Of a DNA stretch of 58,905 nucleotides, positions 9,526 through 54,740 are shown piece after piece (positions within the stretch are counted from its first letter, which is position 1; each line of letters opens with the position of its first letter). The stretch is from positions 1 to 58,905 of the forward strand of contig CAYVMP010000002.1 in NCBI GenBank assembly GCA_964452635.1, given 5' to 3'. The notes below the pieces were generated by a model, which was not told the DNA's origin, did not search any database, and worked only from the letters and a program-made list of their open reading frames with translations. A program made the position numbers and the translations under genes. The DNA comes from an uncultured Candidatus Saccharibacteria bacterium. Lineage in GTDB: Bacteria > Patescibacteriota > Minisyncoccia > Phycocordibacterales > DATDWN01.

Positions 9526-10293
9526 TTAGTTAGTAGTATTAGTTGTTGTTGCTGTCTTGCCATTCCATCCTTTGAGGTTACCGAGTGCTTTCTCAAGTGA
9601 CTTACGAGCCTCTTCTATGTGTTTCTGTGTCTCGTTGGCTACTTTTCGTAACTCAATCATTGCTCCTAGTGTTGTTGATGCTGTTGTAGAGTTTGCTTCG
9701 ATACTTGCTGTTGTACTTGCAAGAGCAGTCATTTTAGTGAGACTGACACGTGCTTCACTAAGGTGTACCTTCGCCTCTGCGTCGAATTTTTCACTGACTG
9801 TTGTGTCTACTCCAGCGTTTTTTACTTTAGTAATTCGTGATTCAAGTCGTACAGCAATAGCACTTAATCGAGAGATGGTCGCATCAAATCTCTCAATCAT
9901 AGGATCGAAGCGGTTTCGAAGTTTGATACCCATGATTTCACGACGACCTTCTTCTCGTCTGTCTTTGATATCCTCACGCATATCTTTGCGAGCTTCTGTT
10001 GTACTTGCACGAAGATTTCGCATATCCTGCATTGTTGTACTTGCATTACCTCGCATGTCTTTTCGTATATCTTTGATATCCTCACGAGTTTCTGTTCGGA
10101 TATTTTTGACATCTACTCGAATACCCATACGAGCCTTTATTGCTTCGAGTACACCCTTTTTAGGTGCTGGTGTTCCTACAGATGCACTGCTGTTTACTTC
10201 TACATTTGTGCCTTCTTCTGCGTACACAGCTCCAGCACAGACGAGTATTGCCACTGCACAGATTGGAATTAGTTTTTTATAGTATGGTGTCAT
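9526..10293 (-). CDS. Secreted repeat/coiled-coil protein (255 aa)
   Basis: Signal-peptide-like N terminus (IPICAVAILVCAGAVYA). Reiterated DIKDIRKDMR / RKDMREDIKDRRE motifs. The antisense 241-aa ORF is Ser/Arg-rich and looks like an artefact. Confidence 0.65.
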   Translation of the reverse strand: MTPYYKKLIPICAVAILVCAGAVYAEEGTNVEVNSSASVGTPAPKKGVLEAIKARMGIRVDVKNIRTETREDIKDIRKDMRGNASTTMQDMRNLRASTTEARKDMREDIKDRREEGRREIMGIKLRNRFDPMIERFDATISRLSAIAVRLESRITKVKNAGVDTTVSEKFDAEAKVHLSEARVSLTKMTALASTTASIEANSTTASTTLGAMIELRKVANETQKHIEEARKSLEKALGNLKGWNGKTATTTNTTN

Positions 10294-10434: not shown

Positions 10435-10606
10435 AAAATCGATTAACTAAGTTTATTTTGGAACATCGCGCAGTTGTTTAGAAAACAACTGCGGGCGAGT
10501 GATGGGAACACGAGATCCGCATATTGTTTTCTTGAACGACGAGCGTGAGGAAAATTTTCACCAGAAAATTATTCTGTTTCCAAAATAAACTTAGTTAATC
10601 GATTTT
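10435..10606 (+). repeat. Foldback repeat copy A (long core, about 30-bp unique arms)
   Basis: Arms AAAATCGATTAACTAAGTTTATTTTGGAAC / GTTTCCAAAATAAACTTAGTTAATCGATTTT. Core 10456-10586 is 129/131 identical to 28501-28631. Confidence 0.85.
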
Positions 10607-25861: not shown

Positions 25862-27340
25862 ATGATGTCACTCCTCCTTTCGGGATTCATATCTGGAATA
25901 CTCATAGGTTCTGTTTTTCCAATCACTGTGTACGTAATTGTGGCCTTTTTGTTTCTCTGTTTGATGCTGTGGGTGAGTTCTCTCTATCGGAGTGATACAG
26001 AAAAAATAATATATAAAAAATATGCACTGTTCACTTTATTTTTTGTTGTTGGATTGAGTCGTATATATGTATCATATATATACAGAGAATCAGAATTAAA
26101 AAATTTCACGAATCACAAAATTTTTGCACATGGAATTATTGTCGCTGAACCAGATGTTCGTGAAAAAAATACCCAACTAACAATCAGTGTAAGAGAAATA
26201 GGTGGTGATACGGGAACAACCACGGTACGTGAAAATATTATTGTTCGTGTTCCATTGTATCCAGAATTTAAATATGGTGACATGGTGTCTCTGACCACCA
26301 CACTTGTTCCTCCAGAAAATATAGATGCAGGAGATGGACGTCAATTCGACTACGTTCATTATTTAGAAGCACGAGAGGTGTGGTATGTCGGACAGTCACC
26401 ACATATGAAGGTGATCTCGCATAACCATGGGAACAGAGTGAAGTCGTGGCTCTTTGCTCTCAAAAATATTTTTACAGAAAGTATTAGTCGTGCCATACCT
26501 CCACCAGAATCCAGTCTTCTTGCTGGTCTTCTTATTGGTAGCAAGCAAGCACTTGGAAAAGAATTACTTGCAGAATTTTCTCGTGCGGGTGTGTCGCATG
26601 TGGTTGTGTTGTCGGGATATAACATTGCGATTGTTGCAGAAAGTATTATGGCGATACTTGTATTTTTGCCAGCAACAGTTTCATTTGGTATCGGATGCGT
26701 AAGCATTATTCTTTTCACGCTTCTTGCGGGTGGGGGAGCGTCGGGTGTGCGTGCTGCTATCATGGTGCTTGTGGCACTCTGTGCACGAAAACTTGGGAGA
26801 GAGTACCACGTGCCTCGTGCTTTTGGGTTTGCTGTTGTGCTCATGCTCGTCCACAACCCAACACTTCTCGTGTTTGATCCCTCGTTCCAACTTTCTGTTC
26901 TCGCGACTATCGGTATTATTTTTGTCTCGCCGTATCTCACTCCATATTTTTCGAAGGTGACAGAGAAGTTTGGTTTGCGTGAAATTGTATCATCGACTGT
27001 GGCAACTCAGATAACTGTATTACCTTTTCTCATTTACACAACAGGTCTACTTTCTTTCGTTTCACTTCTTATAAATATTTTAATTCTCGGAACTATTCCA
27101 CTGACTATGTTTCTTGGATTTGTAACAGGTGTTGCTGGGTTGTTCTCCCTCTATCTTTCATTCATACCTGCATTACCGACATATTTACTTCTGTGGTATC
27201 AACTCACTATCGTCCACATTGGTGCAACGCTACCGTTTGGCGTTGTTCATATTCCAGTATTTTCATTTTGGATTTTGATTGTTGTATACGTAATTCTATT
27301 CATCGGACTATTTTTATTGAAAAACAAAACCGCTCGATAG
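25862..27340 (+). CDS. comEC: ComEC/Rec2 competence channel (membrane part only, no MBL domain)
   Basis: Polytopic membrane protein with the competence-domain motif LLAGLLIGSK...GVSHVVVLSGYNI. Ends before any beta-lactamase domain. Confidence 0.8.
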   Translation: MMSLLLSGFISGILIGSVFPITVYVIVAFLFLCLMLWVSSLYRSDTEKIIYKKYALFTLFFVVGLSRIYVSYIYRESELKNFTNHKIFAHGIIVAEPDVREKNTQLTISVREIGGDTGTTTVRENIIVRVPLYPEFKYGDMVSLTTTLVPPENIDAGDGRQFDYVHYLEAREVWYVGQSPHMKVISHNHGNRVKSWLFALKNIFTESISRAIPPPESSLLAGLLIGSKQALGKELLAEFSRAGVSHVVVLSGYNIAIVAESIMAILVFLPATVSFGIGCVSIILFTLLAGGGASGVRAAIMVLVALCARKLGREYHVPRAFGFAVVLMLVHNPTLLVFDPSFQLSVLATIGIIFVSPYLTPYFSKVTEKFGLREIVSSTVATQITVLPFLIYTTGLLSFVSLLINILILGTIPLTMFLGFVTGVAGLFSLYLSFIPALPTYLLLWYQLTIVHIGATLPFGVVHIPVFSFWILIVVYVILFIGLFLLKNKTAR

Positions 27341-27367: not shown

Positions 27368-27778
27368 TTATTTTGCTAGCATCTGTGCATTTGCTAGCAT
27401 GCACACCGCTAGATCTTCAGAGCGTATTCCGTTGTAACTTCTGTATATGTGCACCCCCTTGGCGTCCATATACGCAACTGATCCATCAATCAGACCGTTA
27501 ATCTTACTTTTCACTTTTGTTGCAAACACAATCCGGATGTTTGGGTTGTGTTGAATGAGTGTTCCTGCCCCTAACATAAATTCTAGGGGTATGTATTCCG
27601 TAACGTAGTGCATTATGCACAGGACCCCAATATTTTTCTTCGTAATTACTTTGTCGAGGTCATCAATGAACTCATCAAATTTTGCATCACTCATTAGTGG
27701 GTACGTGTGAACTGGGTAACTTTCTTCCAGAGATGTAACATCTCTGTGTGCACAGGTCACCAACACATTATTTTTCAT
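27368..27778 (-). CDS. Hypothetical protein (136 aa)
   Basis: Clean ORF, no motif recognised. Lies between the two ComEC parts. Confidence 0.5.
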   Translation of the reverse strand: MKNNVLVTCAHRDVTSLEESYPVHTYPLMSDAKFDEFIDDLDKVITKKNIGVLCIMHYVTEYIPLEFMLGAGTLIQHNPNIRIVFATKVKSKINGLIDGSVAYMDAKGVHIYRSYNGIRSEDLAVCMLANAQMLAK

Positions 27779-27844: not shown

Positions 27845-28438
27845 TTATTGTCCTTTTAAGAAATTTCCTTCAACTTTTGTCCAGTTGAGGTTTTCGAAGA
27901 AATCTTCCACATACTGTTTCTTGCCACTTGGGTGGTAGTCTGCAACGAATGAGTGCTCCCACATGTCGAGCGCGAGAACGAGAGTGCAGTTTTGCAATTG
28001 TCCGAGGTGTTGTTCATCTACCCACGCATGCACAAGTCTCTTCTCGTCTCTGTCCCAGTAGAGCATTGCCCATCCAATACCACGAGTCATAGCAATCGCT
28101 TTGAATCGTGCAAGCCATGCATCAAATGATCCCCATTCCTCAGCAAGTGCTCCTCGAAGCATACTATCTTTACTCAATGGAGTTGCTCCATCAGACAGTG
28201 AATCAAAATACACTTCGTGGTTTCTCATGCCGTTGTATTCAAACCCAAATCGTCTCTGTACTTCTCCGAGAGCATACGCATTTTTCTCGCTGTCAGTCGA
28301 GAGCTCTTCGATTTTCTGTAAAATTAAATTCGAATGCTTCACATATCCCGCATATAGTTTCAAATGCTCCTCAATACTTTTAGCAGACAATCTCTTTAAC
28401 TCCGGAATATTAAATTTTTTCTCTTCAAATGTTTTCAT
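27845..28438 (-). CDS. sod: Fe/Mn superoxide dismutase
   Basis: Metal ligands in IEEHLKLY, GMRNHEVYF and DMWEHSF. Start set at the ATG at 28438, because the longer ORF runs into repeat copy B. Confidence 0.85.
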   Translation of the reverse strand: MKTFEEKKFNIPELKRLSAKSIEEHLKLYAGYVKHSNLILQKIEELSTDSEKNAYALGEVQRRFGFEYNGMRNHEVYFDSLSDGATPLSKDSMLRGALAEEWGSFDAWLARFKAIAMTRGIGWAMLYWDRDEKRLVHAWVDEQHLGQLQNCTLVLALDMWEHSFVADYHPSGKKQYVEDFFENLNWTKVEGNFLKGQ

Positions 28439-28470
28439 ATTTTTTTGGTTAATCACTAAAATTTTGGTAT

Positions 28471-28660
28471 CGGCTATAATCTCGTCGAGCACATATCTCA
28501 TTTTGGAACATTGCGCAGTTGTTTAGAAAACAACTGCGGGCGAGTGATGGGAACACGAGATCCGCATATTGTTTTCTTGAACGACGAGCGTGAGGAAAAT
28601 TTTCACCAGAAAATTATTCCGTTTCCAAAATGGGATATGTCGAGAAAGAGATTATAGCCG
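28471..28660 (+). repeat. Foldback repeat copy B (long core) nested in the GTCGAGAAA-loop hairpin
   Basis: Outer stem CGGCTATAATCTC/GAGATTATAGCCG. TCGAG at 28485-28489 and 28640-28644. Arms ACATATCTCATTTTGGAAC / GTTTCCAAAATGGGATATGT with one T-G pair. Confidence 0.85.
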
Positions 28661-28688
28661 AACATCCAATTACTGTATACTATACCAC

Positions 28689-29612
28689 ATGGACAGCTTT
28701 CTCTCTCACGTTCGTACATATATTCGTTGGTATAGTATTGCGTTTCTTGTATTGGTGTCTGGTATCGTGTGGTACGTGTATTATCGCGAAAGTCGACATG
28801 GGCTACTCACCGTAGCATTTCTCAGTGTCGGTCAGGGCGATGCCATTTATATTGAATCACCGACTGGTACTCAGGTGATTGTGGATGGAGGTCCTGCTCA
28901 AAATCTCATGGGAGCGCTTTCTCATGTGATGCCGTGGTACGATCGACATGTCGACATGATTGTTGTGACAAACCCAGACCTCGATCACTACTCTGGATTC
29001 ATCTCGTTTCTTAATAGATACAGAGTCGATTCAGTTCTTGAATCCGGAACGAAATCAAAAACAGAAACGTATGCACTTTTGGAAAAAGAAATAAGTAATA
29101 AAAAAATTCAGAAAATTGTTGGTACGCGCGGTCAGGTTATTGATATTGGTGGGGGAGCATACCTCTCCGTACTTTTCCCCGACAGGGATGTATCCGATGT
29201 ATCAAGTAATGACGGATCACTTGTCATGAGACTTGTGTACGGTGACACGTCTGTGATGTTGCAGGGTGACTCAACTGCGCGGATTGAGGAGTATTTGATT
29301 TCTCTGGATATGAAAAACGCAACGAGTACTCTCACAAGCACAATTCTCAAGGCGGGTCATCATGGTTCTCGAACATCAACAACGGAATCGTATGTGGCAC
29401 GAGTTCATCCGCAGTGGGCAGTCATATCATCGGGCACAAACAATGACTATGGGCACCCACACATCGAAACACTCAAAACTCTTGAAAAGTTTTCTGTACC
29501 AACACTTGATACATGTGTCATGGGAACAGTTGTGTTTACGTCAGACGGAATCAATCTTCAATTGAAAAATAAAAAAATAATTCCAGTATCCGCGGGGTGT
29601 TTACGGAAGTAG
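28689..29612 (+). CDS. ComEC-type metallo-beta-lactamase domain protein with its own TM anchor
   Basis: VGQGDAIYIESPTGTQVIVDGG, NPDLDHYSG, KAGHHGS motifs. Start set at the ATG at 28689. The upstream ORF extension is read-through of repeat B. Confidence 0.8.
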   Translation: MDSFLSHVRTYIRWYSIAFLVLVSGIVWYVYYRESRHGLLTVAFLSVGQGDAIYIESPTGTQVIVDGGPAQNLMGALSHVMPWYDRHVDMIVVTNPDLDHYSGFISFLNRYRVDSVLESGTKSKTETYALLEKEISNKKIQKIVGTRGQVIDIGGGAYLSVLFPDRDVSDVSSNDGSLVMRLVYGDTSVMLQGDSTARIEEYLISLDMKNATSTLTSTILKAGHHGSRTSTTESYVARVHPQWAVISSGTNNDYGHPHIETLKTLEKFSVPTLDTCVMGTVVFTSDGINLQLKNKKIIPVSAGCLRK

Positions 29613-31891: not shown

Positions 31892-32011
31892 TCAGATCTG
31901 CACAACATATCTTTTTTAGAACATGTCGGAACTCGTGAAGAAGTGAGATTGAGGAAAAATCGTAGCAACGATTTATTCCGTTTCTAAAAAAGATATGTTG
32001 TGCGGATCTGA
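31892..32011 (+). repeat. Foldback repeat copy D (short core)
   Basis: Arms TCAGATCTGCACAACATATCTTTTTTAGAAC / GTTTCTAAAAAAGATATGTTGTGCGGATCTGA with one T-G pair. The core aligns with copy C. Confidence 0.8.
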
Positions 32012-34362: not shown

Positions 34363-36861
34363 ATGAACGAGACATTTATACAAGATCTTGGTCTATACTC
34401 AAAACCAAAAGAATTTGATGTGTTGGATGAACAAAAAGGTTCTTTTGTGCCCGAAATATCTGAAAAAAGCTTAGAAGAAAAGAAGAAAGAGGCTGTTGAA
34501 TATCTACAAATTCTATCTGAGGGATCAAAGAAAAATTTAACAATGCCTATTGTTTTTATAGAATCTCTGAAAGAACGTTACACCAACGAATATATTAGAT
34601 TACATATTCAGGATAGATTTTTGGAAAGATATTTAACCTTGGATCAGGCAAATGATTTGTGTGATTTACTTGGAGTTGAACATGTAAATGTTGCAGTTTC
34701 ATCTGACGCAAATGATATAACAGCTCCAGCATCTCAAGAAAATCTTTCCGATGATTATTTAAACCAAAGCACTTTTGCCGAACCAGATCAAAAACCTGAA
34801 TCTGTTGACGCTCAAGTTCCTGCTGAATTAGAAGGTCAAGAAGAAATAAAAAATAAAGGTTTTAGGGATATTTGCTATGAATATGCAAAAGAGCAGGCAA
34901 AGTGGAAGAAAGAGCAGGGCGAGTTGAAAGTTAAGTTTAATCGAATTATGGAAGACCTTTTTAGAAAGGCCGATTCTATTGGTGAAAAAATAGTCGAGAA
35001 AGTGTCTGGTAAGGAAATAGATCCTGAAAAGAGTTCTCAAACATGGAATCCACCGCAGAGAGAAATTCAAGAAGATCTTAAACGGGCAAAAAAAGATTAT
35101 ATTGATGCAAAAAAAGAAAAATTAAAAGAAAAACTCCAAAGTGTTCCTGACGATGAGAGAATGGAAGCAATTCTTGAATTTGAACAGAAGGAATTTGATG
35201 TAATGCAAAAGTTGATACAAGAAGAACTTGCGGACACAGAGCAGTCTTTGCATAAGAAAGTGTTCTACGGTGGTCTCAAAAAGTGGAGAAAACTCAGTCC
35301 TGCAGGAAGAATTGCAGTCAGCTCGACTCTCATGGGTGTTGGTGGTGCAGTTGCATTTGGAAGCGCGGGTATTATTCCAATAGCAGGAGCGGTCGCATAC
35401 CGAGCAGCGCGAGGAGTAACAGGTGCTTTGGCGTCGTACGGTACTGCTAGGAGTGTCGATGCAATTTATGGCAAATATATGAAAGAAAGAGATGCACAAC
35501 GTAAAAATGAAGTTTTGAAAAATAATAAGCAGGAATACACTGTTGATCTTGATAAATATGAAGAAATAGAAAAAAAGTCTCGTGAATATTTTGAAAATGA
35601 ACAAAAAAGACTTAAATATAAGAATATCGCAAAAGCAAGTGCTGCTGTTCTGGTAGGTGGAGGTGTTAACTATGGCATGAATTTGGGAGTTGGTTCGTAC
35701 AATCATGTGGACGGTACCGTCTCTAAACCTTCTGTATCAGATACTGGTGTTCGAGTAAGACCAGTGACGGGAGGTAACCCAACACCTCAAGGATCTTCCA
35801 TCGAAACTCCTACACCAAAAAACATAGAAATACAAACAGAATTAAATAGCAAAGGTTTTATAAAAACATTCGACGATTTGAAGGAGAAAATTTTAAAGGA
35901 TTATGGAAATGACAAAACCAAACTTCCTCCAAATCTCAAGACATTTGTAGATACATCATCTACCAAACTCGCCATAGACAATGGTCTCTATGATCCATCA
36001 CATAATGCAAGTGCAATGGGTCTTAAAGGTGAGCATCTTTCTGTAGATAAGGATGGTCATCTTACTCTGAAACACCTCGGTGACAAACCTGCAGAGGTAA
36101 TAGACACAGGCAATCACAAATTTAATGTACTTCATAAAGATAAAATGTTTACACCGAAGGAGTCTCCGGTAGATTCTGTGGTTGCTCCAGAACCACCGAA
36201 AGTTGCATCTGCTCCTGTTGAGGCTGGAGTAGCTGGTTCATTGACTGAACCTGTTACTGATACTCCATCTTCTTATCCTGAACAGGGTATTTCTAATAAT
36301 GAAAATGATCAAATTGTTCGTGAAAATTCATCTAAATATCAAACATTAACAAATGAAGCACCAACTGGCGTTGACCATGTTGCACCAATAGAAGCAACAT
36401 CAGAAATTAAGGTAAATGCAGGTGGGTTTAAAGAATGGATTCCGAAAAGAACTGATACTCCTTTTGCTACAGAACATGTCTTTGAAGGTAAAAAAATATT
36501 TCAACTGGCTGATTTCTTACAAGAGGATAGTTTGTCTAAATCATTCCGCGAAGACTTTGTAAAAATATTCGAGCGAACAGTTGATATCAAAACACTTGGC
36601 AAAGTGGTCAAACCTATTCCGTTTGAGGGAGGTATCGCTCATGTCGTACAGGGAGCGAATGATAAAGTTCATGTGTTGCTTAACGGCAAACCTATAGCCG
36701 AAGGGCTCGTAGATGCACAAGGTGCACATGTAAAACTTCTACCAGGCATGCAACATGGAGGAGCGCTCAGACTTTTCTTTGCAGACAATGCGTTCGAGCG
36801 AGTATTTAAATCCAAAGCAATGACAAATGCCATCAAGACATTAACAATAGCTCAAAAATAA
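34363..36861 (+). CDS. Large orphan protein (832 aa) with coiled-coil regions and glycine-zipper hydrophobic segments
   Basis: Lys/Glu-rich heptad-like stretches. GVGGAVAFGSAGIIPIAGAVAYRAARGVTGALASYG and AAVLVGGGVNYGMNLGVG segments. No catalytic motif recognised. Confidence 0.7.
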   Translation: MNETFIQDLGLYSKPKEFDVLDEQKGSFVPEISEKSLEEKKKEAVEYLQILSEGSKKNLTMPIVFIESLKERYTNEYIRLHIQDRFLERYLTLDQANDLCDLLGVEHVNVAVSSDANDITAPASQENLSDDYLNQSTFAEPDQKPESVDAQVPAELEGQEEIKNKGFRDICYEYAKEQAKWKKEQGELKVKFNRIMEDLFRKADSIGEKIVEKVSGKEIDPEKSSQTWNPPQREIQEDLKRAKKDYIDAKKEKLKEKLQSVPDDERMEAILEFEQKEFDVMQKLIQEELADTEQSLHKKVFYGGLKKWRKLSPAGRIAVSSTLMGVGGAVAFGSAGIIPIAGAVAYRAARGVTGALASYGTARSVDAIYGKYMKERDAQRKNEVLKNNKQEYTVDLDKYEEIEKKSREYFENEQKRLKYKNIAKASAAVLVGGGVNYGMNLGVGSYNHVDGTVSKPSVSDTGVRVRPVTGGNPTPQGSSIETPTPKNIEIQTELNSKGFIKTFDDLKEKILKDYGNDKTKLPPNLKTFVDTSSTKLAIDNGLYDPSHNASAMGLKGEHLSVDKDGHLTLKHLGDKPAEVIDTGNHKFNVLHKDKMFTPKESPVDSVVAPEPPKVASAPVEAGVAGSLTEPVTDTPSSYPEQGISNNENDQIVRENSSKYQTLTNEAPTGVDHVAPIEATSEIKVNAGGFKEWIPKRTDTPFATEHVFEGKKIFQLADFLQEDSLSKSFREDFVKIFERTVDIKTLGKVVKPIPFEGGIAHVVQGANDKVHVLLNGKPIAEGLVDAQGAHVKLLPGMQHGGALRLFFADNAFERVFKSKAMTNAIKTLTIAQK

Positions 36862-36866
36862 TTATC

Positions 36867-37163
36867 ATGAACATTGTATCAAAAGAAATCATACAGGAGT
36901 GGGGACTCGGCAACCTCTCCGAAATAAAGCAAGTTGAGATGGTGGAGCGTATTGGACTGCTCATCTACCAAGCTGTGTTGGTGCAATCTCTTGATATACT
37001 CTCTGATGCCGAGCAAACAGAGCTCGATACTCTCATGGGGGAGGATTCTACTACCACAGAGGATGTTCTCGCATTTCTTAACTCAAAAATCCCCACATTT
37101 AAGGAATTAGTAAAAGAAGAGCAAGATCGACTGAAGGAAAGTATATTGGTAGCGAGTGAGTAG
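36867..37163 (+). CDS. Small acidic helical protein (98 aa), hypothetical
   Basis: Starts 6 nt after the 832-aa gene, so probably co-transcribed. No motif recognised. Confidence 0.6.
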   Translation: MNIVSKEIIQEWGLGNLSEIKQVEMVERIGLLIYQAVLVQSLDILSDAEQTELDTLMGEDSTTTEDVLAFLNSKIPTFKELVKEEQDRLKESILVASE

Positions 37164-46320: not shown

Positions 46321-46797
46321 ATGAGTAGTTTTGAATGTTGGGTGACTGCGGTCATCCTGATCGTTATCTGTGCTTTTTTGATTTGGTTTCTGGTTGTGAG
46401 GAAGATTAATGAGGAAAACCAGAGGCTGAAAGAAGAAAATGAAAGTCTCAGACATAAAACTACCACAGAGTCATTTTTGTGGAATATTTTTTCTGGGTTA
46501 AACCTATTCTTGGACTATATTGACAGGGAAATACCCGTGTCTGTATATTGTACACTTTCTCTTTCGCATGATTCTATAGAGGTATACTGGCAACCTCGCT
46601 TGTCAAAATCTAAAAATCCAGCATCAAAGAATACTATTGTATTGGTGTCTGTGATTAATGATGGGAGTGTTGTACTATCCAGGGGTGAGGTGCAAGAAAA
46701 TTTTTTTGCAATGTCTAATGCTTGGGATATACAACATAGAGTTATGGGAATTATAGATGAATTTTTGAAAGACTATAAAGTATCATGTAGCAGTTAG
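46321..46797 (+). CDS. N-terminally anchored orphan protein, cassette 1 (158 aa)
   Basis: GGAGG 8 nt upstream of the ATG at 46321. TM segment WVTAVILIVICAFLIWFLVV. Distant similarity to the cassette 2 protein. Confidence 0.6.
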   Translation: MSSFECWVTAVILIVICAFLIWFLVVRKINEENQRLKEENESLRHKTTTESFLWNIFSGLNLFLDYIDREIPVSVYCTLSLSHDSIEVYWQPRLSKSKNPASKNTIVLVSVINDGSVVLSRGEVQENFFAMSNAWDIQHRVMGIIDEFLKDYKVSCSS

Positions 46798-46805
46798 GAT
46801 GACGA

Positions 46806-46838
46806 CCAGTGTGCCCCCGAGGGGAGCCCACTGGTTTT
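46806..46838 (+). terminator. Repeated terminator hairpin, copy 1
   Basis: ACCAGTGTGCCCCCGAGGGGAGCCCACTGGTTTT is identical to 47299-47332. Confidence 0.7.
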
Positions 46839-46893
46839 ATTTTATATTGACTCGTATTTTGAATAATGGTAGTAATAGTTCGGAGGTGAGTAT

Positions 46894-47292
46894 ATGTTTT
46901 TTCTCGTGGTTGTCGGTATGTTTACTTTTGTGTTGGGTGTCGTTGTATTGGTACAGGGTATTCATCACAGAAGAAAATTTGTTGTTTTCAACGAGAGACT
47001 AGGTCTCCTATCAACAAGAGATTTAGGTGAACTTTACAAAAGCATTAAAAATTTTGTTGATTCAAACAATCTAACTTCTCAATTGGCAGTCTCGTGTGGT
47101 TTTGAAAGTAACTCAATTGATGTTTGTACTGCTGATTCGGGTAGCAGATTATTTTCTGTGATAATAAATTACTCTAACGGTCATCATATTAAAATTGATG
47201 ATGGTCAGGTAACCGCGTGGGAGATATTCGGAGTAATGGAAGTTTTAGAGATGTGTAAAAGAAAGATTGTTAGTCATCGTGTGCAGGTCTAG
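46894..47292 (+). CDS. N-terminally anchored orphan protein, cassette 2 (132 aa)
   Basis: GGAGG 7 nt upstream. TM segment FFLVVVGMFTFVLGVVVLV. The upstream 45 nt are paralogous to cassette 1. Confidence 0.6.
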   Translation: MFFLVVVGMFTFVLGVVVLVQGIHHRRKFVVFNERLGLLSTRDLGELYKSIKNFVDSNNLTSQLAVSCGFESNSIDVCTADSGSRLFSVIINYSNGHHIKIDDGQVTAWEIFGVMEVLEMCKRKIVSHRVQV

Positions 47293-47299
47293 CAGATAA

Positions 47300-47332
47300 C
47301 CAGTGTGCCCCCGAGGGGAGCCCACTGGTTTT
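47300..47332 (+). terminator. Repeated terminator hairpin, copy 2
   Basis: Same sequence as 46806-46838. Confidence 0.7.
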
Positions 47333-47345
47333 GTTTATTCATTTA

Positions 47346-50023: not shown

Positions 50024-50145
50024 CATTCTCGTCGAGCACATACTATTTTGGAACATCCCGGAAGGCGTGAAGACCTGAGGGCGAGGAAAATTTTCAGCAG
50101 AAAATTATTCCGTTTCCAAAATGGTATGTGTCGAGAAAGAGAATG
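50024..50145 (+). repeat. Foldback repeat copy C (short core) nested in the GTCGAGAAA-loop hairpin, between rplO and secY
   Basis: Outer stem CATTCTC/GAGAATG. TCGAG at 50032-50036 and 50131-50135. Arms CACATACTATTTTGGAAC / GTTTCCAAAATGGTATGTG with one T-G pair. Confidence 0.85.
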
Positions 50146-50164
50146 GAAAACAGCGATACATATC

Positions 50165-51451: not shown

Positions 51452-51655
51452 AAAAAATCTTTGAACCAATATCTTTCTGGCACATCGCACATAAGGGTAC
51501 ACTTACATCTGATGTACTCATCAGATGAGAATTTAAAAAAATTTTCGAGTGGTGTGGATTGGAGAGGCCCCGGAGCCGACGGGCGAGGACCTGAGGGAAT
51601 TTCGCACCAGCGAAAACCCGTACTCTCCAAGACATACCACGAGAAAATTTTTTTT
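51452..51655 (+). repeat. Composite/degenerate foldback repeat copy E between secY and adk
   Basis: Left end CCAATATCTTTCTGGCACATCGC matches copy F. 3' module CCTGAGGGAATTTCGC-ACCA-GCGAAAACCC matches the family hairpin. Outer AAAAAAT/ATTTTTT pairing. Confidence 0.6.
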
Positions 51656-51676
51656 AAATTTGCTATCATATTACCT

Positions 51677-54182: not shown

Positions 54183-54596
54183 ATGACACGTCCACATTTA
54201 TTTAAACACGCATTCATCACACTCATACTCGTTGGTGTTTTGAATTTCATCGCAACTCGACTGTATTTGTACTGGACTACTCAATACTTTGATAGTCTCG
54301 TACACTTTACTGCGGGTATATCAGTTGGATTTGCGACACTTTGGATTGTGTCACGGAGTCAGCCATCATGGACGACCATCGAGATATTCCGAGTGGCATT
54401 TTTCGGTACACTAGCCATCGGTCTTCTGTGGGAGGCATACGAACTCATGTTTGGCATCACATCAATCCTCGACGGTGTTCACTATGTCACCGATACACTA
54501 TTTGATTTGGTGATGGATGTGCTTGGGTCAGTTGTGGCGGCATTCTATTCGATGGGACTTGCAACCACGACACCTTCAACAGAACAAATTAAATAG
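54183..54596 (+). CDS. Four-TM membrane protein, hypothetical (137 aa)
   Basis: Four hydrophobic helices. No motif recognised. Confidence 0.6.
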   Translation: MTRPHLFKHAFITLILVGVLNFIATRLYLYWTTQYFDSLVHFTAGISVGFATLWIVSRSQPSWTTIEIFRVAFFGTLAIGLLWEAYELMFGITSILDGVHYVTDTLFDLVMDVLGSVVAAFYSMGLATTTPSTEQIK

Positions 54597-54720
54597 AAAA
54601 CTCGTCGAGCCAATACATTTCTGGCACATCGCGGAACGAGTGAATACACGTGAGCGTGAAGTAAGTGTTCACTTCGTTCCCTTATCCGGTGACAGAAAGG
54701 TATTGGAGAGAAAGAGTTTT
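54597..54720 (+). repeat. Foldback repeat copy F (variant ends TTTCTGGCAC/GTGACAGAAA)
   Basis: Outer stem AAAACTC/GAGTTTT with GTCGAG...GAGAGAAA halves. Arms CCAATACATTTCTGGCAC / GTGACAGAAAGGTATTGG. Inner hairpin GGAACGAGTGAA...TTCACTTCGTTCC. Confidence 0.7.
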
Positions 54721-54740
54721 CTATTTAATTCAATTATATC

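Follow-up and report, generated by a model that had tools for sequence, protein, structure and literature searches.

A foldback element with a covarying three-way-junction core in intergenic spacers of Paceibacterota

The spacer between rpsG and fusA in the window analysed here (the whole stretch of DNA, 58,905 nucleotides) contains a foldback, designated copy D, which belongs to a set of exactly six copies of the same element detected in the entire window, all on the plus strand, by a covariance-model scan with the filters off (Table 1). Pfam matches confirmed the identities of the neighbouring genes given in the initial annotation, namely fusA, secY, adk, the MBL-domain gene and the beta-CASP RNase gene, and added ppa and SOD to the genes that flank the copies. 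The rest of the window is occupied by housekeeping genes, including those for RNase Y, ClpP, trigger factor, NusA and TIM and type IV pilus genes; PGK, RecJ, RNase H, a ComEC domain, NDK, L20 and IF3 are encoded as well. Copy A is antisense to both of its neighbours, ppa and the ORF at 9526-10293, and its right end lies 11 nt from the ppa stop codon. ComEC is apparently split: the Competence/DUF4131 part (25862-27340, plus strand) is separated from the MBL-domain part (about 28689-29612, plus strand) by the minus-strand genes at 27368-27778 and 27845-28501 (SOD) and by copy B. An 832-aa ORF (34363-36861), located between fusA and a 98-aa ORF (36867-37163), has no Pfam match.

Table 1. Positions of the six copies, of the parts of copy D and of the orphan half-arm in the window
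Feature	Position	Strand	Context and basis
Copy A	10435..10606	+	P2a arm enlarged; hairpin loop at 10560
Copy B	28470..28661	+	between SOD (-) and MBL-domain gene (+); loop at 28605
Copy D, whole foldback	31892..32011	+	rpsG-fusA spacer; inverted repeat, fold, covariance model
Copy D, closing stem P1, 5' arm	31892..31921	+	partner 31982-32011; 30 bp, single T·G
Copy D, arm P2/P2a	31925..31949	+	fold; helices 2 and 3 paired 97-99%, compensated
Copy D, hairpin P3 (described in the initial annotation)	31953..31979	+	pattern scan and family comparison
Copy D, closing stem P1, 3' arm	31982..32011	+	
Copy C	50024..50146	+	rplO-secY spacer; loop at 50096
Orphan 5' half-arm	51453..51488	+	resembles 5' arm of copy F
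Copy E	51529..51661	+	secY-adk spacer; divergent member, 28 bits; loop at 51606
Copy F	54587..54730	+	upstream of beta-CASP RNase gene

In copy D, the 5' arm of the closing stem P1 is followed by an unpaired CAT and a small arm in which P2 (GTC/GAT) closes an internal loop with GGA in the 5' strand and GA in the 3' strand, and P2a is a 3-bp stem (ACT/AGT) capped by CGTGAAGA. An unpaired TGA precedes the hairpin P3 and an unpaired GT follows it. P3 itself consists of four basal pairs (GGAA/TTCC), a bulged A at 31975 and a 7-bp distal stem (AAATCGT/ACGATTT) that carries the loop AGCA at 31964-31967. The five hairpins of this type that had been quoted for copies A to E were all found on the plus strand, with the sequences as written, and a scan of the window for A[C/G]CA-loop hairpins after TGAG/GAGG yielded these five and nothing else comparable. 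In agreement with the initial annotation, copies A to D share the 3'-side bulged A, which lies between the 7-bp distal stem and four more pairs, and the swaps TTTTC/GAAAA, ATCGT/ACGAT and TTCGC/GCGAA are fully compensated. The hairpin of copy E, unlike the 7-bp type of copies A to D, has a 6-bp distal stem and a 2x1 internal loop; copy F is devoid of the ASCA hairpin, and another hairpin stands in place of P3. The orphan half-arm beside copy E looks like a remnant of a decayed copy. On the 3' side of this half-arm, within the stretch 51453-51525, there is a separate perfect hairpin, CATCTGATG-TACT-CATCAGATG.

A first covariance model was built from copies C and D with a hand-drawn structure, and was rebuilt from the 17 best matches. 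The related-genome set comprised the window and 80 SecY-centred loci, 1.41 Mb altogether with at most 22 kb per related locus; the best SecY relatives, 77-79% identical, come from Candidatus Zambryskibacteria and other Parcubacteria/Paceibacterota MAGs, which assigns the window to a Zambryskibacteria-like member of the CPR bacteria. This set contains 23 copies, six in the window and 17 in 14 other genomes, and the core is conserved across genomes in which SecY is 62-79% identical to that of the window. The pattern used to scan metagenomes fixed the inner 5' strand of P1, the first junction and only the 5' half of the small arm, and left P3 unconstrained. The scan retrieved 65 loci (related and metagenomic loci are both designated below by L numbers), in which the covariance model identified 60 copies, 50 of them distinct, so that the two sets together include 73 distinct copies; the metagenomic sample represents one subfamily only, the one with a GAC(U)G-capped P2a.

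The copies share a core of about 85 nt, a three-way junction that is closed by a long stem of about 18-30 bp. The order of the components is P1, the junction (C/A)CU(U/C), P2 (3 bp), the internal loop G(G/C)A versus GA, P2a (3-5 bp, with a cap that is mostly GACG or GACUG), the junction NGA, P3, the junction GU(G) and P1'. P3 is made up of 3-4 bp, the 3'-side bulged A, a 7-bp distal stem and the loop. The distal stem is exactly 7 bp long in 60 of 68 copies, and an A directly follows it in 60 of 68; the loop is AGCA in 44 of the 68 and conforms to A-N-Y-A (AGCA, ACCA, AACA, AUCA or AGUA) in 56. Many copies have, outside P1, a purine-rich symmetric loop (…CGA, P1, GAG…) beyond which pairing resumes; this loop potentially forms tandem G·A pairs. 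The length of P1 varies between about 12 and 40 bp by direct extension. Its inner 9-10 bp (ATTTTGGAA/TTCCAAAAT) are common to copies A, B and C and coincide with the limits of the identity between A and B. Other genomes have UUGAAAAG/CUUUUCAA in common, and the outer ends vary.

Pairing is maintained in this family to a much greater extent than in shuffled alignments. Among the 23 genome-derived copies, 94.4% of the pair cells are paired versus 60.5% in column shuffles, double changes are found at all 29 of the 29 pairs, and the covariation score is 0.81 versus 0.22, a value reached by none of the 500 shuffles; when the partners are slid by 1-3 columns, pairing falls to 36-54%. The 50 distinct metagenomic copies are paired at 93.7%, versus 67.3% in shuffles, with double changes at 27 of the 29 pairs. 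An alignment made with a covariance model leans to the modelled structure, but two results obtained independently of this constraint agree with it. In particular, P3, which was free in the search pattern, is 97.3% paired in the metagenomic set, with all 11 pairs compensated, and an alignment of 28 copies by MAFFT and RNAalifold, with no model fitting, recovered P2a and P3 including the bulged A, with compensatory changes at all 13 predicted pairs. Comparison of close copies (85-99% identical) gave, among the changes that keep a pair, 81 double compensated ones and 39 single ones via G·U, against only 28 that break a pair and 27 in unpaired positions, these counts being taken over sequence pairs, so that the events are not independent. 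Together, the covariation and the close-pair counts indicate that the stems drift while pairing is kept, whereas the loops, the bulge and the junctions are fixed. The proposal that the structure is kept by compensatory change is thus borne out by the larger alignments, in which covariation is well above that in shuffles; covariation in every helix is combined with conserved unpaired nucleotides.

Several features show that the fold belongs to one strand. Copy D scores 90 bits with the covariance model on the plus strand and 12 bits on the minus strand, and for all six copies of the window the plus strand is predicted to fold better than the minus strand, by 5-16 kcal/mol. Across the annotated pairs of the 73 distinct copies, G·U pairs outnumber A·C pairs 81 to 19 (binomial p = 1.4e-10), and for P3 alone the ratio is 26 to 3; in the outer arms, outside the model alignment, inspection revealed about 16 G·T versus 5 A·C. 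Conservation extends to the asymmetric loops, the bulge and the nucleotides of the junction. Given the excess of G·U over A·C, it is one specific strand, here called the motif strand, that folds. The initial annotation had argued for the plus strand on the grounds that the mismatches in the closing arms of copies B, C and D are T-G only. This argument was sound in kind and is correct for copy D, with its one T·G, but it was incomplete for copies B and C, where it overlooked a 7x7 purine-rich internal loop, GTCGAGC / CGAGAAA.

Covariation as such cannot tell single-stranded DNA from RNA (Weinberg et al. 2017, PMC5737381). Selection at the RNA level, as originally proposed, is therefore unproven because G·T wobble and covariation fit RNA and folded single-stranded DNA alike. 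We lean slightly towards RNA: a three-way junction, tandem G·A pairs, a loop of the ANYA type and a constant 7 bp between this loop and the bulged A would all be RNA-like features. A link to the replication strand was considered and rejected, there being no consistent relation to GC skew: of 48 loci, 16 have the motif on the G-rich strand and 29 on the C-rich strand. The six copies of the window are all on the G-rich strand.

The orientation of the copies relative to their neighbours was counted with ORFs called mechanically around every copy. Both neighbours are on the strand opposite to the motif in 27 copies, and both are on the motif strand in 14; a further nine copies are convergent (upstream gene on the motif strand, downstream gene opposite) and four are divergent (upstream gene opposite, downstream gene on the motif strand). 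In the copies that are antisense to both neighbours, the ratio of G·U to A·C is 38:6, which argues that the fold is not selected as part of a sense mRNA. The distance between a copy and a stop codon ranges from a few nucleotides to about 30 nt; the stop codon belongs either to an opposite-strand gene at the 3' side of the motif or to a same-strand gene at its 5' side. The distance to the next start codon is more variable. Next to the metagenomic copies there are 63 flanking genes, none of them a mobile-element gene; they are housekeeping genes unrelated to one another and include those for Mur ligases, SSB, ATP synthase, EF-G, GyrB, enolase, DnaB, UvrD, RNR, FtsH and S7. No transposase, reverse transcriptase or integrase was found in the window or beside the 50 distinct metagenomic copies.

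These observations bear on the possibility that the element is a sense-mRNA leader that regulates in cis the downstream gene, be it fusA, secY, adk or another. That the structure is selected in the sense orientation of the downstream genes had been claimed from the window, in which five of the six copies indeed have this orientation; the claim fails for the family of 73 distinct copies, where double antisense placement prevails over sense placement and the antisense copies show no weaker a structural bias. Copy C has a promoter-like match (10 of 12 positions) at its 5' edge, as might be expected of a leader. Conversely, the downstream genes are unrelated, the preceding stop codon is nearer to the copies than the following start codon, and in L096, L052 and L067 the copies in the rpsG-fusA and secY-adk spacers have the opposite orientation. 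The orientation statistics thus largely refute a sense leader as a property of the family, a reading that we consider very improbable, and a cis-regulatory leader or riboswitch was rejected on the same counts and on the lack of coherence among the neighbours.

The distribution of the element is that of a sequence that is gained and lost. The density is about one copy per 10 kb in the window (six copies and the remnant in 59 kb) versus about one per 80 kb in the related loci (17 in 1.36 Mb), where any copy at all is present in only 14 of the 80 loci and absent from 66; copy number per genome is in each case an extrapolation from partial genomes. Three copies lie within 5.5 kb in L086, some metagenomic contigs contain two or three copies within a few kb, and inverted doublets, with copies 40-80 nt apart, are found in L136 (6394-6596) and L144 (2982-3217). 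The rplO-secY spacer, which is 171 nt long in the window and is filled by copy C, is only 10-25 nt long and lacks the element in 9 of the 11 closest relatives inspected; in the remaining two it contains short repeats unrelated to the element. At the same time, the secY-adk spacer, the spacer between map and the next gene, and the rpsG-fusA spacer are occupied in several genomes. The called secY ORF of the window begins at TTG 50048, inside copy C, and comparison with relatives places the true start at ATG 50165, so that the stretch 50048-50164 is an example of how the element inflates ORF calls. About 120 nt upstream of secY, the rplO-secY spacer of L010 and L012 is filled with short tandem repeats of the type TTCGCATA/TTCGTATA. 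A different long foldback is located right after secY in the closest relatives (L003, L008, L010 and L012; for instance, L003 4078-4200), with arms such as GACGCTCACATTTAGGCAA…TTGCCAAAATCTGAGCGTC and a CTCACC-containing core, and looks like a second foldback family in these genomes. Within the ribosomal-protein cluster of the window, the related stretches 46751-46842 and 47245-47336 share a G+C-rich, terminator-like hairpin, ACCAGTGTGCCCCCGAGGGGAGCCCACTGGTTTT.

Mosaic composition is also apparent. The cores of copies A and B are 98% identical over the 132 nt bounded by ATTTTGGAA…TTCCAAAAT, and their outer arms are unrelated; conversely, B and C have similar arms and different cores, and copy F shares arm sequence with the orphan half-arm. 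Near-identical P1 stems with different flanks occur in L104 and L075, and in L136 and L109. A search for guide-like stems found no second match in the window for the unique arms of copies A, D and E. In copy F, the outer 17-bp stem (54587-54603 with 54714-54730) takes in the last 10 nt of the ORF 54183-54596, so that the stop codon of this ORF is buried in the stem; here, as in L102, L085, L104 and L027, the outermost stem repeats the final codons and the stop codon of the adjacent gene exactly, in inverted form. Such stems suggest that extension occurred by copying and not by compensation point by point. Target-site duplications were not recognised, the flanks showing …CGA, stem, GAG… and not exact direct repeats, and no related insertion sequence was found in the window or beside the metagenomic copies.

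A search of the whole window against Rfam 15 at the gathering thresholds matched only a tRNA, and E-value searches with copy D, copies C/E and nine metagenomic loci of the majority type returned only generic hairpin matches, namely miRNA precursors of the long-hairpin type far below threshold. Full-text searches of the literature yielded no description of such repeats in CPR bacteria. The element, absent from Rfam and from the literature searched, is previously undescribed. A sigma-70 promoter of its own was rejected since promoter-like sites are not enriched at the copies, and what looks like a TTGACA upstream of some copies is, on the complementary strand, the ATG TCA A start of the neighbouring gene. 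An origin from phages or plasmids was rejected after two pattern scans of viral contigs without a match.

We put at about even the chances that the element is a dispersed structured repeat of Paceibacterota (Parcubacteria, CPR), similar to REP/BIME or MITEs, that is recognised in a single-stranded form. Such a repeat would be non-autonomous, gained and lost between relatives with a highly variable copy number; it would recombine into mosaics, decay into remnants and settle right behind stop codons in either orientation. The fold of one strand might be preserved because the single-stranded form is recognised by a trans-acting protein, and recognition of this kind would fit the fixed 7-bp 'ruler' that separates the ANYA loop from the bulged A, as well as the G(G/C)A/GA loop and the purines conserved at the junctions. 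The strand signature is equal whatever the direction of transcription or replication, which suggests that selection acts on the propagation of the element. The consequence for the host would be secondary: the upstream cistron would end in a long stable hairpin, no matter which strand is transcribed. Against a repeat, a three-way junction with conserved unpaired purines exceeds the known REP and MITE structures in elaborateness, and neither the enzymes nor the target-site duplications sought were seen near the copies. Furthermore, the occupation of the same spacers together with the conserved core could instead reflect long-term retention in place under host-level selection.

The main rival is accordingly a host-functional RNA selected in place, that is, a family of non-coding RNAs with transcription of their own, often antisense and convergent to the 3' end of the adjacent gene, which might act as protein-binding RNAs, RNase III substrates or antisense regulators of that 3' end. 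We regard it as a minor but serious possibility. It would account well for the greater conservation of the unpaired junction and loop nucleotides compared to the stems, for the persistence of the G·U bias in copies antisense to both neighbours, for the RNA-like look of the three-way junction, the tandem G·A and the loop, and for the same spacers being filled in several genomes with diverged flanking proteins. However, there is no conserved promoter or terminator, A/T tracts being as frequent as in controls; operon spacers of 15-50 nt are too tight to hold a promoter as well; a stem that varies so widely in length and absorbs gene ends would not be found in a discrete RNA gene; and most of the related loci, including those of the closest relatives at the position of copy C, have no copy. 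A more specific and rather unlikely version is a new functional RNA class of Paceibacterota in which the junction module would dock a CPR protein that processes or uses the adjoining stem. The copies would then be hairpin precursors or antisense clamps on the 3' ends of neighbouring genes, with the stem (18-30 bp) differing in each copy, and the whole would be a host-level RNP system rather than a selfish repeat.

The structure might alternatively exist at the DNA level only, the arms being kept by template switching or gene conversion, or serving as cruciform or duplex binding sites, with no selection on the single-strand fold as such. The long perfect outer stems of 29-39 bp in copy A, L008 and L027 are in line with this, as are the arms that are exact inverted copies of gene ends, which copying explains more easily than compensation. 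Template switching would, however, remove features that are conserved, namely the bulged A, the asymmetric loop G(G/C)A/GA and the G·T pairs, and a strandless process would not yield the 81:19 asymmetry, which is independent of the direction of transcription and of GC skew; we consider this explanation improbable. An unusual bidirectional intrinsic terminator with a decorated apical part is very improbable. The placement of the element right after stop codons in either orientation, and the A-tract/stem/T-tract outer arms of a few copies (L052, L118, L098 and copy E), are what a terminator would show, but of 64 copies only 5 have a T-rich 3' end and control positions gave as many, and insertion into terminator loops was rejected on this count too. 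Besides, canonical terminators without the core occur in these genomes, and the conserved asymmetric core is not needed for termination.

To our knowledge, non-coding elements are almost undescribed in CPR bacteria, which have tiny streamlined genomes. The element described here is well supported, with 73 distinct examples and compensatory changes in every helix, and it takes up a noticeable share of the intergenic sequence, including positions in the ribosomal-protein and secY-adk-map cluster. If it is a mobile repeat, streamlined genomes tolerate the proliferation of a structured element, and a mobilising activity is implied; as a functional RNA, it would define a new RNP. In practical terms, the element inflates intergenic spacers and lengthens ORF calls, and the covariance model would improve the annotation of CPR genomes.

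Compared with known systems, the element shows partial similarities to several. Tandem G·A pairs and CPR hosts recall the K-turn and box C/D RNAs and the TIGR-Tas arrays (PMC12045711), although the TIGR-Tas paper does not concern this element. Copies C and D, and only these two, carry GUGAAGA...UGA, which resembles the C and D boxes. In contrast to TIGR-like arrays, there is no 3-nt bulge, the copies are dispersed rather than arranged in tandem, and no Nop-domain gene is adjacent; a K-turn was rejected since the internal loop is 3x2 (GSA/GA) and other members have a GACG-capped stem instead. The prevalence of structure over sequence, the folding of one strand, and extrahelical bases and G·T pairs as recognition features are shared with attC sites and the ends of IS200/IS605 elements such as IS608. 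These sites, however, reside in cassettes or on a transposon that carries the enzyme and show a strong lagging-strand bias, whereas the copies of the present element are found in housekeeping operons with no integrase or TnpA nearby and without a link to GC skew. An integron attC site was rejected on these grounds, namely the location in ribosomal-protein and housekeeping operons, the lack of an integrase and the skew distribution of 16 versus 29 loci.

The A-N-Y-A tetraloop with a bulged A at a fixed distance from the loop is, by analogy, reminiscent of the MS2-type coat-protein operator. The MS2 operator has its bulge 2 bp below the loop in the 5' strand, whereas that of the element lies 7 bp below the loop in the 3' strand. 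Among bacterial MITE-like repeats with an RNA fold, the Correia elements of Neisseria, the enterobacterial ERIC/IRU and the pneumococcal BOX and RUP are comparable as intergenic foldbacks of 100-200 nt, with mosaic composition (as in BOX), differences in presence or absence between relatives and, likely, co-transcription with the neighbouring genes as long hairpins. The Correia, ERIC, BOX and RUP repeats are, however, defined by conserved terminal inverted repeats and target-site duplications, without covariation, whereas in the element the sequence drifts, the pairing is kept and the internal core is the most conserved part.

Finally, REP/BIME are the repetitive extragenic palindromes of proteobacteria that are mobilised by RAYT (Y1 HUH) transposases. 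Like them, the element is extragenic and multi-copy, occurs in both orientations after stop codons or between cistrons, sometimes forms inverted doublets, is built on an asymmetric palindrome that defines the strand, and varies in copy number by lineage; the doublets of L136 and L144, with their 5' ends face to face, resemble REP doublets. No RAYT gene was seen in the 59-kb window or beside the metagenomic copies, the genomes covered being partial throughout. REPs are simple hairpins of 20-40 nt with a species-conserved sequence and a GTAG-type 5' motif, whereas the element is 100-200 nt long, combines a conserved three-way-junction core with stems of variable sequence, and is spread over many genera.
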